A stretch of DNA of 64,000 nt. Source: Candidatus Gottesmanbacteria bacterium RIFCSPHIGHO2_01_FULL_46_14. GTDB lineage: Bacteria; Patescibacteriota; Microgenomatia; UBA10105; UBA927. Below, piece after piece: positions 3,496 to 19,825 of this stretch. Made by a program: the position numbers and the translations under genes. Below the pieces are notes generated by a model, which saw only the letters and a program-made list of their open reading frames with translations, ran no database searches and was not told the origin of the DNA. The DNA is taken from positions 898 to 64,897 of the forward strand of contig MFJJ01000010.1 in the NCBI GenBank assembly GCA_001780895.1, in the 5' to 3' direction. Position 1 is the stretch's first letter; each line of letters begins with the position of its first letter.

Positions 3496-3504
3496 AAAAA
3501 GTCT

Positions 3505-4245
3505 ATGGAACTTAAAGATAAAGTTGTTCTCATTACAGGTTCTTCAAGTGGCATAGGCAAAGCCGCCGCCCTCAAATTTGCGCAAGAAAAAGCAAAAGTA
3601 GTTGTTCATTACAAAACTAATAAGACTGGGGCCCAACTTACAGTAGACGAAATGAAAAATTGGGGCGCTGAGGTTATCGCAGTTCAGGCCGATGTAGTGA
3701 AGCCTCACGAGGTCAAAAGACTATTTTCCGAGGTACTTAAAGCGTTTGGAACCTTAGACGTTCTCATTAATAATGCAGGATTAGCCAAGCCAAAGCCCTT
3801 TTTGGAAATCACCAGAGATGACCTGGCGGAGGAGTTTGATAAGAATTTCTTTAGCATGGTTTACTCCTGTCAGGAAGCTGCAAGAATCATGCAAAAAAAA
3901 GATTCCGGAAAAATTATCAATGTCTCTTCGATTTGTGGATTAACAGGCTGTACAAGCATACTCACTTTTACATCTGCGCGGTCAGCAGTAACGGGTTTTA
4001 CAAAGGCACTCGCCAAAATTCTAGCACCAAACATAATGGTTAATGCAGTAGCGCCAGGATTTACCCTTACCCGCTTTTGGGATAAAATGACAGACAAAGA
4101 GGTTAAAGAATTGCTTGACTCAACACTGTCTAAAAAGTGGGTTACCGCAGAAGAAATCGCAGATACATTTATTTATTTGACTAAAAACGATTCTGTGACT
4201 GGTCAAGTAATCGTTGTAGATGGAGGCTACACTACAAATATATGA
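3505..4245 (+). CDS. SDR family oxidoreductase (FabG-like)
   Basis: ITGSSSGIGKAAA Rossmann motif, NNAG motif, and the catalytic S...Y...K spacing. Confidence 0.75.
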   Translation: MELKDKVVLITGSSSGIGKAAALKFAQEKAKVVVHYKTNKTGAQLTVDEMKNWGAEVIAVQADVVKPHEVKRLFSEVLKAFGTLDVLINNAGLAKPKPFLEITRDDLAEEFDKNFFSMVYSCQEAARIMQKKDSGKIINVSSICGLTGCTSILTFTSARSAVTGFTKALAKILAPNIMVNAVAPGFTLTRFWDKMTDKEVKELLDSTLSKKWVTAEEIADTFIYLTKNDSVTGQVIVVDGGYTTNI

Positions 4246-4712
4246 ATACAAAAAACAAAAACATCATTAAGGATATTCTTCAAGCAACCCCCTTGCTGTC
4301 TATGGCTTCTATTACAAAAGACGGGAAGAGTTGGATTTGCACTGCCTTTTATGCATATGATGATAAACTGAAATTGTATTTTCTAACTCCGCCGACGACA
4401 CAACACAGTAAAAATTTAGAGAAAAATGCTTCAGTAGCTATTTCAGTTTTTGATACTCATCAAAACCCTGATGACAAGAAGCGGGGGCTACAGATATTTG
4501 GTGCATGTCATAAAGCAGCAGGTAATGAAATAGAGAAGGGGCTACGCATATATGGCAAACGATTTGTGGATTTCGGAAAGAAAATCCTTTCGCCAGAAGA
4601 TATTGAGAAATCAAAAATGCATTCGCGCTTCTATGTTGTAGTCCCGCAAAAGATAAAAATATTTGATGAATTAGTTTTCGGTGAAGAGATATGGGTAACC
4701 GTGGTTATTTGA
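4242..4712 (+). CDS. pyridoxamine 5'-phosphate oxidase-like FMN-binding split-barrel protein
   Basis: 156 aa. ATGA overlap with the upstream SDR gene. Pattern resembles general stress protein 26 / PNPOx. Confidence 0.4.
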   Translation: MNTKNKNIIKDILQATPLLSMASITKDGKSWICTAFYAYDDKLKLYFLTPPTTQHSKNLEKNASVAISVFDTHQNPDDKKRGLQIFGACHKAAGNEIEKGLRIYGKRFVDFGKKILSPEDIEKSKMHSRFYVVVPQKIKIFDELVFGEEIWVTVVI

Positions 4713-5343
4713 TCTCCGGCAAGACTTCGAGGGGGTTGACGGGGGTGCCGTCCTGGTAGATTTCGAGGTGAAGGTGGTTGCCGGTGGACCAGCCGGTGGA
4801 GCCTACCTCGCCGAGCTTCGTTTTCTTATCTACAGTTTGACCAGGACTCACATCGATTTTGGACATATGGCCATAAAGCGACTTCATGCCGTCGTCGTGT
4901 TCGACAAGCACATGGTTGCCGTAGCCCCAGTTTGAGAAAATAGTCCATTCCACCCAGCCGTCAGCGATTGGGTACACAGGAGTGCCTTTGGGATTGGTGA
5001 GATCAACACCCGGGTGGCCGGTTGAAAATATTGTGGTTAGGCCAAATCGGGTGAATGGCCACTGAAACTTGGTGTCTGTCGGGATGATCTCAATAATCGT
5101 CTCTTCTGTGGCCTTGCTCACTTCGAGATTGGCGACGAAATCTGTTGCAGTGGGCACTAAAACCGCGGAAAAGACAGCCACTCCAGACAAATACACTCCT
5201 ATGATCTGGGGGAGCTTGGTTGCCTCAATCTTTTTGCGTAAAATGAGGCTAATTCGATTGCTGCCTCGATAGGGGACCAGCAGCCAGTAAATAATCTTTT
5301 TCGTAGAAGCCGATAGTATATAATTTTGCTTCTTTCTTGTCAA
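4705..5343 (-). CDS. M23 family metallopeptidase (LytM-like), membrane anchored
   Basis: HPGVDL...GNHLHLE motifs (HxxxD and HxH). N-terminal TM helix. The apparent start is TTG at 5343 and there is no upstream ATG. Confidence 0.65.
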   Translation of the reverse strand: MTRKKQNYILSASTKKIIYWLLVPYRGSNRISLILRKKIEATKLPQIIGVYLSGVAVFSAVLVPTATDFVANLEVSKATEETIIEIIPTDTKFQWPFTRFGLTTIFSTGHPGVDLTNPKGTPVYPIADGWVEWTIFSNWGYGNHVLVEHDDGMKSLYGHMSKIDVSPGQTVDKKTKLGEVGSTGWSTGNHLHLEIYQDGTPVNPLEVLPEIK

Positions 5344-5360
5344 ATTGAGGTGCAGGCGCT

Positions 5361-6266
5361 ATGATGAGGAGATCTATGCGCAGAAAGATAGTATTTCTGG
5401 TCGTTATTCTTCTTCTGATCGGTGGTGTTATAGGACTAATCCGATTTTTTTCAGGCCGAAGCGGAGCGACCGGTGAGCTTCGTGTGGATAGTCAGCCTAC
5501 AGTGAGTATATTTTTGGATAATAGACATATTGGTCGAAGCCCCTATAAAGACAAAGTTGCCTCCGGTGAATATACCATCAAGCTTACTCCGGAATCTGCG
5601 GTCGATTCTCCGGCAAGTTGGCAGGGACAAATCACTATTGGACCCAATTTATTAACGTATGTAAATGCAACACTTTCCGACTCCGAGCTTACCAGTGCAG
5701 TCGATGTTCTTTGGCTCACTAAAACGTCAGGCAGAGCCTCCGAAGTTTCCGTTACCACCAACCCCGATGGCGCAACACTTCTTATTGATAACGAAACGAA
5801 AGGAGTAACACCCCTTGCTATCTCCGATCTTTCCGCCGGAGACCATACGCTCACGGTTACGTCTCCGGGATTTGCTCCCCGAACGCTCAAAATAAAAGCA
5901 ACGGCCGGGTATCGCCTCATCGTGACGGTCAAACTTGCCCTTTCTGGCGAGCCGATGCCAACGCCGACTGAGGAAGCGACACCTTCGCCAACACTTAAAA
6001 CAACACCTAAAGCGACCCCAACCAAGATAGCAACAAGTTCAGCCACCATGCCTGATCCGACTAAACCCTTCGTGACGATCAAAGACACACCCACCGGATT
6101 TTTGCGCGTCCGGATGGAGCCATCGACGGCCGCTACTGAAGCTGCACAAGTCAAGCCTGGTGAAAAATATCACATCGAGGATGAGCAGAGCGGGTGGTAT
6201 CAGATAAAATACAGCGGAACCAATGAGGGTTGGATCTCCGGCCAGTACGCCACAAAGACTGAGTAA
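5361..6266 (+). CDS. PEGA domain protein with C-terminal SH3b-like domain, membrane anchored
   Basis: N-terminal TM helix. PEGA-like block (TNPDGATLLIDNETKGVTPL...GDHTLTV). Pro/Thr-rich linker. C-terminal GWYQIKY...GWISGQY. Confidence 0.5.
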   Translation: MMRRSMRRKIVFLVVILLLIGGVIGLIRFFSGRSGATGELRVDSQPTVSIFLDNRHIGRSPYKDKVASGEYTIKLTPESAVDSPASWQGQITIGPNLLTYVNATLSDSELTSAVDVLWLTKTSGRASEVSVTTNPDGATLLIDNETKGVTPLAISDLSAGDHTLTVTSPGFAPRTLKIKATAGYRLIVTVKLALSGEPMPTPTEEATPSPTLKTTPKATPTKIATSSATMPDPTKPFVTIKDTPTGFLRVRMEPSTAATEAAQVKPGEKYHIEDEQSGWYQIKYSGTNEGWISGQYATKTE

Positions 6267-6271
6267 TATAT

Positions 6272-6679
6272 ATGGGTTATGAAAATGTGTTGCGCGTGGA
6301 GGGTTTTCTGAAGGATCGTATTGGCTGGTGTAGCGGAAGTGGTTATTCGAGTTTCGGGAGGATGGTTATAGCGTATCGCGACGAAGTACCTCGTGATGAC
6401 GTTTTAACAGGGGAGGAGCTTGAAAAAGCTTGCGCATCTTGTCCAGTGGGGAAAGAGAGAATACCTGGTTTGATTTGCGGTGGGATGAAATATGTCAATC
6501 GGATGCAAAGTCAAATGGTGGCTGAGGTGGATGTTTCAGATAAAGCTCAGTTACCGGAAGGCGCTGAAATATTTTGTGGCTTGGATAACGCGAGGTTACA
6601 ATCGATGAAGGAAGCACCGACCATAGCAGAAGTAGCAGCTCAATATACCGGCGATATGCCTCTCGTGCCGTATAATTGA
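6272..6679 (+). CDS. hypothetical protein
   Basis: 135 aa ORF with no recognisable family. Confidence 0.3.
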   Translation: MGYENVLRVEGFLKDRIGWCSGSGYSSFGRMVIAYRDEVPRDDVLTGEELEKACASCPVGKERIPGLICGGMKYVNRMQSQMVAEVDVSDKAQLPEGAEIFCGLDNARLQSMKEAPTIAEVAAQYTGDMPLVPYN

Positions 6680-6693
6680 TGGAGCGCAAATTG

Positions 6694-6750
6694 CTACCCT
6701 CCTATCCCATACACGACCACCAGCACGCTTCCCACCCAAAGTTCCTTCAG
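6694..6750 (-). pseudogene. duplicated 3'-end fragment of the UbiA-family prenyltransferase gene (encodes ...LWVGSVLVVVYGIGG*)
   Basis: 19 codons ending in TAG. The last 15 aa are identical to the C-terminus of the intact gene at 7384..8322, with about 10 synonymous nt differences. Confidence 0.6.
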
Positions 6751-7112
6751 TTCATCCGACGAAATACGATTTCAAACTCTTTACGAAATCCTTCAAACGT
6801 TATGGTGGCTTTTTGGAAAAGATCCGCTTGTCCGAGGATACAATGGTAGGGCGATATTCCTTCCACGATATTCAATGCGAGGGAAAACGTACTCCCATTT
6901 ATTTCTGCCTCCGCGCGATCAAACCGGTGAGAACGAAATTGTCCGCTTAACGTAAAGCCGATAGATGCCGGAATACTCTCCCATGGTATGCTGAGCGATT
7001 CTGCGATAGTCGTTGAAATCACTGCTCCTGCTGCGCCAGAGTCAACCAATGCAAATGTCGGAAATTCTGTTTGTTGGTGGCGAAATGTCACGGGAACTAT
7101 CGGTGCCAGCAC
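6747..7112 (-). CDS. retropepsin-like aspartic protease (clan AA)
   Basis: LVDSGAAGAVIS active-site motif, hydrophobic-hydrophobic-D-S/T-G-A. Length 121 aa. Confidence 0.55.
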   Translation of the reverse strand: MLAPIVPVTFRHQQTEFPTFALVDSGAAGAVISTTIAESLSIPWESIPASIGFTLSGQFRSHRFDRAEAEINGSTFSLALNIVEGISPYHCILGQADLFQKATITFEGFRKEFEIVFRRMN

Positions 7113-7383
7113 GACTCTGTTCTTGATGCTCGGAAGCGGACTGTACCTGTATTGTATGAAGCCTATCCGATGAAGTTGCCGTACGTTTTTCCTGCCGGAA
7201 AAAAGTATACCTTTTCTTTTTGTTTCTGTACCTTCTCTTTGAGTGTTTTTAGGTTTCTTCCGGCAAACACGACGGAGCGAAAGTCAGACGAAATTGCTAC
7301 CCATCCGGACGTATGGCCCCGCAGTAGTTTGACAAAATTGATCGACTTCTTTTTCATACAACAGTAGTATACTACTTTATGCT

Positions 7384-8322
7384 TCATCCTCCAATGCCGT
7401 AGACCACCACCAGCACACTCCCCACCCAGAGGATGATTGTGGCTAGAAGGGGAAGATCGCTGGTTAAAATTTTCTCCGGTGATTCACCTTTCCCTTCGTA
7501 AATAAGCTGCATATACCGCATGATGCCATAGAGAACAAATGGGATTGTCAACATCATCCATTTTCGCCCGGGAATATCCGGTGCAAAATCTCCGTAGTTG
7601 CGAAAAATAATACCTTCTCCTTGAGGTTGGGCTAAAAACGTAAAAAATGCGTAGGTAATAAACGTCGAGTTTGCAAACATTGCCGTATAGGTATCAAGGA
7701 GTTTTTCTGAGTAATGGGAAAGCGCCATACGCGTATCGCGGGGAACAACGCCTTCGTAGCTATCGATAAGGGTAAGCTCTGCTCTGCGTTTTCCGATAGC
7801 AAGAAACAAGGCAAGCGACAAAGCCGCCAGAGCGAGCCAAATGGAAATGTGAAATCCCGTGGCGGCTTCACCGGCATAGACCCGGAGGATATATGCGGTC
7901 GTAATGGTAAGAATATCAATAATACTGTACTGTTTTAAGATAAGCGTATAGGCATACTCAAGAAACAAAAATGCGACTGCAAAAAGAAAAAACGTCGGAT
8001 TGGTGAGACTTGCAATATAGAGCCCTGTGAAGGCAAAAAGAATCGAAACGAGGACTGCCACAGGGATAGGGAGTTTGCCGCTTGCGACCGGACGAAATTT
8101 TTTGAAGGGATGTTTTCGGTCTCGGGGAGCATCGAGGACGTCGTTAAAGAGATAGTTTGATGAGGAGAGTAAACAAAATGCAATAAACGCCCAGAGATTT
8201 TGTATAAATGGGGCGGTTTGAAACAGTTGCCCAGTAAAGAGAATCGGCGTGAAGATCGCGATATTTTTTAACCACTGTCGGGGTCGTGCGGTTTTGAAAA
8301 TTGCCAAAAGTACTTGAGCCAT
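7384..8322 (-). CDS. UbiA family prenyltransferase, decaprenyl-phosphate phosphoribosyltransferase-like
   Basis: NDVLDAPRDRKHP...RPVASGKL motif (NDxxDxxxD) and multiple TM helices. The start was trimmed to MAQVLL (8322) because the ORF-track N-terminal extension overlaps the upstream gene. Confidence 0.55.
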   Translation of the reverse strand: MAQVLLAIFKTARPRQWLKNIAIFTPILFTGQLFQTAPFIQNLWAFIAFCLLSSSNYLFNDVLDAPRDRKHPFKKFRPVASGKLPIPVAVLVSILFAFTGLYIASLTNPTFFLFAVAFLFLEYAYTLILKQYSIIDILTITTAYILRVYAGEAATGFHISIWLALAALSLALFLAIGKRRAELTLIDSYEGVVPRDTRMALSHYSEKLLDTYTAMFANSTFITYAFFTFLAQPQGEGIIFRNYGDFAPDIPGRKWMMLTIPFVLYGIMRYMQLIYEGKGESPEKILTSDLPLLATIILWVGSVLVVVYGIGG

Positions 8323-18695: not shown

Positions 18696-18725
18696 ATGTT
18701 ACTATGTTTCGAAACAAGATAACAT
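18696..18725. repeat. degenerate copy of the 30-bp palindrome ATGTTACTATGTTTCGAAACATAGTAACAT
   Basis: ATGTTACTATGTTTCGAAACAAGATAACAT has about 3 mismatches in the right arm. It sits 3 nt beyond the stop of the P-loop kinase gene. Confidence 0.7.
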
Positions 18726-18728
18726 GAA

Positions 18729-19250: not shown

Positions 19251-19280
19251 ATGTTACTATGTTTCGAAACATAGTAACAT
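19251..19280. repeat. 30-bp perfect palindrome ATGTTACTATGTTTC|GAAACATAGTAACAT (putative operator, shared by divergent genes)
   Basis: Perfect 15+15 inverted repeat, 7 nt upstream of the kinase start and 17 nt upstream of the TrpR-like gene start. Confidence 0.8.
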
Positions 19281-19740: not shown

Positions 19741-19770
19741 ATGTTACTATGTTTCGAAACATAGTAACAT
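19741..19770. repeat. 30-bp perfect palindrome, third copy
   Basis: Identical to 19251..19280. Starts 4 nt after the stop of the TrpR-like gene. Confidence 0.8.
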
Positions 19771-19825
19771 AAAAATGTAAAGCATAGGAAGATAAGTTTT
19801 TTTTGATGAATGCTATACTTAAGAT

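Follow-up and report, generated by a model that had tools for sequence, protein, structure and literature searches.

Duplicated UbiA gene end around a small two-gene cassette in a Gottesmanbacteria genome, with related gene-end duplications at other loci of the candidate phyla radiation

In a 64,000-nt stretch of the genome of Candidatus Gottesmanbacteria bacterium RIFCSPHIGHO2_01_FULL_46_14 (hereafter the window, in whose coordinates all positions are given unless another locus is named), the last 15 codons of a UbiA-family prenyltransferase gene occur twice, once at the end of the intact gene and once as an orphan fragment, and a two-gene cassette encoding a small protein and a retropepsin-like protease lies between the two copies. 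Comparison with related genomes indicates that 690 bp is inserted at the UbiA 3′ end. On balance, we read the region as the footprint of a mobile cassette of ~640 bp that carries along a copy of a host gene's end and integrates, with no integrase of its own, by recombination at short homology. The UbiA case appears to exemplify something that a small cassette family of the candidate phyla radiation (CPR) does repeatedly and that has apparently not been described before.

UbiA, both tails, the small open reading frame (ORF) and the protease gene all lie on the minus strand. On that strand, 7431–7384 reads CTCTGGGTGGGGAGTGTGCTGGTGGTGGTCTACGGCATTGGAGGATGA and 6741–6694 reads CTTTGGGTGGGAAGCGTGCTGGTGGTCGTGTATGGGATAGGAGGGTAG, and each translates to LWVGSVLVVVYGIGG*. 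The copies differ at 11 of 48 nucleotides, nine of them third-position changes that are all synonymous (T/C, A/G, C/T, C/G, G/C, T/C, G/C, A/T and G/A) and two of them within the stop codon (TGA versus TAG). By our arithmetic, the chance that nine differences over 45 sites would all fall at third positions is C(15,9)/C(45,9), or ~6e-6. The similarity sets in abruptly at a leucine codon and ends at the stop. In a six-frame translation of the window, LWVGSVLVVVYGIGG is the sole repeated peptide of at least 10 aa besides a palindrome family near 19.2–19.8 kb; apart from the UbiA tail the window holds no second gene-tail duplicate, and it holds no other copy of the cassette. The orphan lies in the −1 frame relative to the protease; read upstream, this frame meets a stop after 11 codons and offers no start codon, so that the orphan is untranslated. 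Homologous proteases, moreover, end at the same RRMN*, and translation of the orphan as a frameshifted protease extension or as an ORF of its own is ruled out; orphans at other loci are likewise preceded by stops. Four independent assemblies agree exactly over the segment 6260–7440, which is therefore no assembly artefact; it is also present in a fifth strain variant, L181 (labels of this kind denote contigs or loci of relatives and of other cassette carriers; P0123 and P0214, used below, are homologous proteins).

The initial annotation of this DNA had already recognized the duplicated tail at 7384–7431 and 6694–6741, with its identical peptides and synonymous differences, and the count of nine third-position changes plus the stop codon bears this out. 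It had described the intervening DNA as a 660-bp segment carrying a single gene whose stop overlaps the fragment. The DNA between the tail copies is instead 642 nt long and carries two genes, a 64-aa ORF at 7163–7357 and the protease at 6747–7157, and the protease stop (6747–6749) lies 5 nt before the orphan, in a different frame.

The same 15-aa tail is encoded at six other loci, in five distinct sequences. Pairwise differences amount to 6–11 of 45 nucleotides, with the two copies in the window at 9 of 45. Only 6 of the 15 codons are identical between the window tails, which equals the saturated background of 0.39–0.48 between the window UbiA and that of any other species. Since the distance between the tails equals the distance between orthologous tails of different species, one of the copies should be foreign, and the earlier proposal that both had evolved as coding sequence agrees with the same comparison. 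Over the 30 first and second positions there is no change, and the orphan retains its stop codon; by our estimate, an orphan diverging in place would have been expected to gather ~12 first- or second-position changes. The absence of any such change in an untranslated orphan thus indicates that one copy was recently a working gene end elsewhere. We infer that one of the two tails, and it may be either, came from the UbiA gene of another lineage and was working until recently.

The functional copy is slightly nearer to L001 and L057, and the orphan slightly nearer to L016, L017 and L180. A max-chi-square analysis placed a breakpoint near nt 780 of UbiA (0/300 permutations for two comparators and 1/300 for a third), with synonymous sites saturated against every reference, and sliding-window and third-position identity for the UbiA and PEGA genes were likewise limited by synonymous saturation. 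Hints of mosaic ancestry, which are not robust at these saturated sites, occur at 7384–7540 (the last ~155 nt of UbiA) and at ~6050–6150 (the SH3 part of the neighbouring PEGA gene), both being nearer to L057, L018 and L054 than to L001. A different ancestry of the two flanks was ruled out, L001 being the nearest relative on both sides.

The site without the insertion is preserved in relatives. The window UbiA has 6376 homologues, of which the nearest (86–87% identity) come from Gottesmanbacteria and are named UbiA/DPPR transferase. In the closest relatives (L001–L006, with UbiA 85–87% identical), UbiA is directly convergent on the PEGA/SH3 gene at a distance of 0–85 nt. This convergent pair is found in ~85 related loci, including all 80 species-level Gottesmanbacteria genomes retrieved, and in the 80 species the UbiA junction holds no cassette, no second UbiA copy, no tail duplicate and no ORF135, the gene that separates the PEGA gene from the orphan in the window. 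In L180, the PEGA gene is followed by an ORF135-like gene and then by UbiA in the opposite direction, with no cassette. The UbiA and ORF135-like genes of L180 are 15 nt apart, stop to stop, compared with 14 nt between the orphan and ORF135 in the window, and the DNA beyond is colinear. The empty site that the initial annotation had proposed to look for is thus found in ~85 loci, with L180 as the colinear case, and the segment is therefore an insertion. The inserted block can be drawn as 6742–7431 (tail plus cassette) or as 6694–7383 (cassette plus tail), with the same resulting sequence.

The UbiA/PEGA junction is also an insertion hot spot in Gottesmanbacteria (L014–L093, at ~3500–5600). Its inserts include a gene for a 175-aa NUDIX-like protein, recognized by eye, in L063, L067, L070, L073 and L082, a gene for a 220-aa membrane protein in L036 and L048, larger ORFs in L016, L064, L074 and L083, and a CPBP-like gene. 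In 21 related loci with inserts at this junction, there is no tail duplicate. What looks like an exact duplicate of the PEGA gene end in L020 (4496–4594) borders a run of N and is a product of scaffolding that mimics a tail duplication; an apparent duplicate in L014 (~4440–4550), also beside a run of N, is a scaffolding artefact too.

Similar duplications accompany the cassette at other genes. Among 54 loci for which both flanks were available, a flanking repeat was accepted when its alignment score exceeded the 99th percentile of a mismatched-flank null. By this measure, 13 of the 54 cassettes lie between direct repeats of ~18–57 nt, which are 79–100% identical and particular to each locus. 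Translated, several of these repeats prove to be the last codons of the same-strand gene directly upstream, namely nusG in L155 (duplicated end of 17 codons), fusA in L106 and L107 (~10 codons) and a gene for a 524-aa protein in L131 and L150 (duplicated tail QWFFFLQTKREEMG*). In these cases, the upstream copy extends to the host stop codon and 0–6 nt beyond. Across 11 tail pairs, synonymous differences affect 36 codons and non-synonymous ones 7, and the stop is kept in every orphan. Variation among 13 distinct copies of the 524-aa-gene tail, 12 of them orphans, falls at 4, 0 and 9 sites for codon positions 1, 2 and 3, respectively. Some repeats are highly similar (56/57 in L155 and 41/43 in L131), and some are non-coding, comprising a terminator-like hairpin in L124/L125 and DNA resembling a ribosome-binding site in L111/L126.

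At the 524-aa gene, the tails recur in arrays. L147 has three copies (positions 362, 1077 and 1767), each preceded by stops, and the 524-aa gene itself is not on the contig; L148 has copies at 8, 3445 and 5826, and L158 at 141 and 821. The cassettes that alternate with tail copies in these arrays are not all alike; a RelB/YafQ pair is among them, as is a second DUF5678/retropepsin pair. Orphans at this gene range from 13 to 23 codons, with at least five junction types at the one target. In L145 and L159, the cassette and its downstream tail lie beside a divergent ABC-transporter gene, with no 524-aa gene upstream. From these two loci, the travelling unit may be the cassette plus its downstream tail, with the orphan as the travelling copy. 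The initial annotation had taken the functional end as the imported one; the two insertion geometries are equal in this respect, and L145 and L159 suggest that it may rather be the orphan. The 524-aa gene and the other array ORFs gave no informative family matches, and in the literature we found no paper describing this cassette or tail duplication at housekeeping genes.

Two further sequences recur around the cassettes. A conserved motif, ATCATCACAAATTTTGC, stands in the arrays shortly after tail copies and at the starts of cassette leaders (L145, L147 at ~1135–1150, L148, L150, L158 and L159), and could be a promoter, an operator or part of a recombination site. A hairpin-like sequence, AAATCAACCCGACGGGTTGATT, is found in the flanks of closely related cassettes (L008 at 3697–3714 and 4414–4431, and upstream in L094/L095), so that the repeats are not all locus-specific.

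To account for these arrangements, we propose that the incoming unit would consist of the cassette (leader, small ORF and protease gene) and a copy of the UbiA end of another lineage, and that it would integrate at or beside the tail homology without an element-encoded integrase. Integration could take the form of a Campbell-type single crossover of a circle made of cassette and tail, or of a homology-anchored recombination with an illegitimate join on one side, by which the old 3′ end would be displaced. The host gene would stay intact, and the two tails, one resident and the other imported, would form a direct repeat; repetition at the same gene end would yield cassette arrays separated by tail copies. 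Before insertion, the empty site would read tail + CAATTTGCG, and the circle junction would consist of the protease stop, AGGAA, the tail and the AGCATAAAG leader. A crude regular-expression scan for tyrosine and serine recombinases found no recombinase motif in the 64-kb window, and the insert holds two small genes only. There is no attC-like hairpin in the tails, which fold no better than shuffled sequences (z −0.85 to +0.9). An earlier suggestion that an integrative element had entered the gene end and brought a replacement end from another lineage therefore survives as an insertion at a gene 3′ end with one foreign copy; the classical element does not, as the insert measures 0.65 kb and has no integrase. 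More tentatively, the arrays could reflect an integron-like, integrase-free system of the CPR, in which cassettes of toxin–antitoxin (TA) or defence type would use the last 10–25 codons of conserved genes as portable attachment sites. Each cassette would bring its own tail copy and enter the matching gene end of a new host with no harm to the gene, and the arrays would be strings of former gene ends from different lineages.

Several observations weigh against integration at short homology by a travelling cassette. Flanking repeats are found in just about a quarter of the cassette loci. The window tails share no identical run longer than 11 nt, less than ordinary RecA-dependent crossover needs, and at ~20% divergence homeologous recombination is a rare event. 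No donor was found, and the 80 other Gottesmanbacteria species have neither the cassette nor an orphan tail at UbiA. The window protease lacks the ATG of its family. Lastly, the orphan begins 1–8 nt after the protease stop in seven loci, where random illegitimate joining predicts a looser junction; this tight right junction hints at a defined element end and at an additional enzyme.

Such an enzyme might be a site-specific recombinase acting in trans, for example the tyrosine integrase of a phage or of an integrative and conjugative element (ICE) encoded elsewhere, for which the gene end would be the attachment (att) site and the cassette an integrase-less passenger bounded by attL and attR. 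The tight right junction would then be explained, the architecture resembles that of e14 at icd (direct repeats of a 3′ end, synonymous differences and a displaced fragment), and the arrays resemble tandem accretion at one att site. We nevertheless regard this explanation as unlikely. The element carries no integrase and the window no recombinase motif, as far as the crude scan can tell, and the cassette occurs in no viral contig, with no relative in IMG/VR and no match in PHROGs. At least four unrelated targets (UbiA, nusG, fusA and the 524-aa gene) share no motif, and the variation of the repeat between 13 and 23 codons at a single target leaves no fixed crossover point; unrelated targets and variable junctions together thus disfavour a fixed-site recombinase. 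Improbable to a similar degree, in our view, is a long target-site duplication of 20–57 nt, initially identical, whose copies later diverged through replacement of the gene end by a foreign allele or through selection or gene conversion acting on the orphan, as excision must restore the gene. The near-identical repeats of L155 and L131 and the non-coding repeats are what mechanical duplication would give. In the window, however, third positions are saturated (9/15) with none of 30 first and second positions changed, against the ~12 changes estimated for neutral divergence, so that mechanical duplication followed by divergence in place fails. Gene conversion would homogenize the copies and not leave them 20% divergent, and a later end replacement would call for one more event on top of the same rare homeologous recombination. 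To our knowledge, no bacterial insertion mechanism gives variable duplications of 20–57 nt.

The remaining explanations are far less probable. That the orphan is left over from a tandem UbiA paralogue after deletion or replacement of the rest, an alternative offered in the initial annotation, has in its favour just the existence of a second UbiA-like 3′ fragment, and we consider it very improbable: the ~85 related loci have no second UbiA copy or fragment, with the PEGA gene (ORF135 in L180) abutting UbiA; the similarity begins abruptly 5 nt past the protease stop; and the pattern recurs behind the single-copy genes nusG and fusA. Least credible of all is a chance match of a low-complexity hydrophobic peptide or a chimera of two strains. 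The tail is a Val/Gly-rich transmembrane segment, which speaks for a chance match, and the initial annotation had named such a match as a possible undoing of its claim; 15 identical residues, an aligned stop and differences confined to third positions exclude it, and the analogous structures elsewhere have non-hydrophobic tails. A chimera is ruled out by the four identical independent assemblies and the fifth strain variant. We therefore return to integration of a travelling cassette at a gene end as the favoured reading, and turn to the cassette itself, whose parts and neighbours are listed in the table.

Table. Features of the duplicated UbiA end, the cassette and the adjoining genes in the window.
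Feature	Coordinates	Strand	Description
UbiA-family prenyltransferase (decaprenyl-phosphate phosphoribosyltransferase-like)	7384..8322	−	312 aa, intact; Pfam PF01040, E 9.5e-22
Functional copy of duplicated end	7384..7431	−	15 codons + TGA, inside UbiA gene
Cassette leader	7358..7383	−	26 nt; −10-like TATACT at 7366–7371; homology to other cassettes starts here
Small ORF, DUF5678-like	7163..7357	−	64 aa; GWVAISSDF motif
Retropepsin-like aspartic protease	6747..7157	−	136 codons + TGA; motif LVDSGA
Spacer AGGAA, protease stop to orphan	6742..6746	−	5 nt
Orphan copy of UbiA end	6694..6741	−	15 codons + TAG, untranslated
ORF135	6272..6679	+	Lineage-restricted gene between PEGA gene and orphan; context, outside cassette
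PEGA/SH3 gene	5361..6266	+	Pfam PEGA and SH3_3; convergent conserved UbiA neighbour, marks ancestral junction

When cassettes are aligned, a conserved TGGTATACT stands ~20 nt ahead of the ATG of the small ORF, and homology between cassettes runs from this box to the protease stop. The −10-like hexamer is TATACT in the window and TATAAT in the strain variant L181; a simple promoter scan made no call at the TATACT box. In 68 loci, homologues of the small ORF begin at the position that corresponds to 7357, and a 74-aa version starting at an ATG at 7387 is probably an over-extension. Of the family members, 11 of 36 match Pfam DUF5678 (PF18929; best E 1.7e-6). The window copy has no match, and the copy in L010 scores 19.3 bits against a cut-off of 23.2. 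No PADLOC model matched the small protein, and a single-sequence structure model of low confidence (predicted local distance difference test, pLDDT, 70.9) was not used. We found no paper on the biology of DUF5678.

The small ORF and the protease gene are adjacent and co-oriented in 68 other CPR contigs, in unrelated contexts. Their neighbours include genes of restriction–modification (RM) and OLD type, Gp49-HTH, DUF433/DUF5615 and RelB/YafQ genes, as in the defence and TA islands of L008, L010 and L147. From this company, we infer that the gene pair is probably TA-like or of defence type. In L010 (2100–5400), the same cell-envelope neighbourhood (TatD, GT2 ... GT4) has an island with the cassette and a DUF433/DUF5615 pair, at a different junction and with no flanking repeat.

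The protease has 92 homologues, mostly of 136 aa, which start with Met where the window has ATA (7155–7157). This ATA is identical in the four assemblies and hence real, and as a result of the replaced ATG, gene callers report the protease as 114–121 aa. The next possible start, a GTG at 7110–7112, would remove the N-terminal strand. An AlphaFold model built on a 59-sequence alignment reached a pLDDT of 93.7. Among the 50 matches listed in a Foldseek search of the PDB, all are HIV-1, HIV-2 or SIV proteases, with HIV-1 protease on top, a probability of 1.0 and a template-modelling (TM) score (target) of ~0.7. The catalytic D-[ST]-G-A motif reads LVDSGAAG in the window; across the 59 sequences D39 and G41 never vary, and conservation at S40 and A42 is 90% or higher. 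The protein falls below the curated cut-offs of PF13975 (gag-asp_proteas; 24.0 bits versus 28.2), PF13650 (20.6 versus 24.3) and TIGR02281 (14 versus 58), and by its model is a divergent stand-alone retropepsin-like protein outside the curated families. The family comprises 826 cluster representatives at E<=1e-3 and 54 at E<=1e-10, and its member P0123 matches the PADLOC model PDC-M52B over its full length (E 6.6e-7). With its ATA start and TATACT in place of TATAAT, the cassette in the window may be degenerating, or the changes may serve to tune its expression. In the nusG-associated cassette of L155 (944–1192), the protease is internally deleted (82 aa, with the catalytic region gone) despite the near-identity of the flanking repeats there.

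The surroundings of the insert are poor in signs of other mobile elements. The window has no tRNA, 6000–7700 has no Rfam match at E<=1, and at the insert neither terminal inverted repeats nor a transposase were recorded. Tight ends, with a 26-nt leader and a 5-nt spacer, rule out a remnant of a larger prophage or ICE. Integration linked to a tRNA was rejected as well, the window having none; among the cassette loci, just L095/L096 have a nearby tRNA, which is not repeated. A diversity-generating retroelement is excluded by the lack of a reverse transcriptase and by tail differences that are all synonymous at third positions and not confined to template adenines. A transposon with target-site duplication is excluded by the lack of a transposase and by the variable repeat length.

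Next to the orphan, ORF135 has a single non-self homologue among 5.8 billion proteins, P0214 of L180 (67% identity), and matched no family and no PHROGs entry. It is absent from the nearest relatives, L001–L006, though these are closer overall than L180, a distribution that suggests patchy loss or separate transfer. Elsewhere in the window, a palindrome of ~30 nt, ATGTTACTATGTTTCGAAACATAGTAACAT, occurs at 18696–18726, 19251–19280 and 19741–19772, ~500 nt apart. Two of the copies are perfect and the one at 18696 is so to ~90%. They look like a repeated operator before small genes.

Mobile elements are thought to be scarce in the CPR, or Patescibacteria, and accessory gene gain in their reduced genomes is poorly understood. 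If the proposed cassette behaviour holds, it would provide a recombinase-free route by which tiny selfish or defence cassettes pass between species through the ends of housekeeping genes such as nusG, fusA and a cell-envelope prenyltransferase gene. It would connect prophages that carry replacement gene ends with the C-terminal displacement arrays of toxin loci, and would give a genomic behaviour to the uncharacterized DUF5678 and retropepsin-like pair. It would also supply a signature for recent horizontal insertions in metagenomes, namely an untranslated copy of a gene's last codons that has diverged with a period of three.

In its contents, the cassette resembles type II TA systems and PDC-M52, with two small, adjacent and co-oriented genes in defence or TA islands and a protease family that matches PDC-M52B; it differs from them in that the small protein matches no PADLOC model, and its TA function is putative. 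In their layout, the arrays recall integrons, which likewise assemble small, often TA-type cassettes with a recurring short separator and apparent addition beside a fixed anchor. Unlike in integrons, the tails have no attC hairpin and, by inspection, no GTTRRRY core, and the separators are host coding sequence with period-3 variation; a crude scan saw no IntI-like gene in the window, and the array contigs were covered over 4–6 kb. Integrase-less passengers are known among the cis-mobilizable elements of Streptococcus, which also undergo tandem accretion at fda, and among the cargo-only tycheposon satellites at tRNA genes. The cassette shares with these passengers its small, integrase-less format, the gene-3′-end repeats and the tandem accumulation. 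The passengers need a cognate integrase and one att site, whereas the cassette has many targets and variable junctions.

The closest parallels to the duplicated tail itself come from two other systems. The e14 element lies in icd of E. coli, with an icdC fragment that shows synonymous differences (PMC13626634), and Hill et al. (1989), so far as they are cited in PMC13626634, placed e14 and phage 21 within or at the icd 3′ end, with the gene intact and a second copy of the end beyond the insert. As in e14 and phage 21, the region described here has direct repeats of a gene end, an empty site and copies that come from different lineages and differ mainly by synonymous or conservative changes. 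However, the prophage e14 spans 15 kb, encodes an integrase and has a fixed att core, whereas the window insert is 0.65 kb long with two small genes and no integrase, and members of the cassette family are found at several unrelated gene ends, with repeats that vary in length. At Rhs, contact-dependent inhibition (CDI) and type VI secretion system (T6SS) loci, C-terminal displacement produces arrays of orphan 3′ ends, for which homology-facilitated illegitimate recombination (HFIR) has been proposed (PMC5361080). There, an incoming module enters by recombination in a conserved part of the upstream gene, and the former 3′ end comes to lie downstream of it; repeated events leave strings of orphans, and no integrase is known (PMC5361080). 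Orphaned 3′ fragments downstream of an inserted module, sometimes in strings, are common to HFIR at these loci and to the cassette. In the Rhs, CDI and T6SS systems, the new 3′ end is a different toxin tip with its immunity gene, whereas here both ends encode the same peptide, and the cargo, unlike in toxin-tip diversification, forms a cassette of its own that follows the stop codon of a housekeeping gene.

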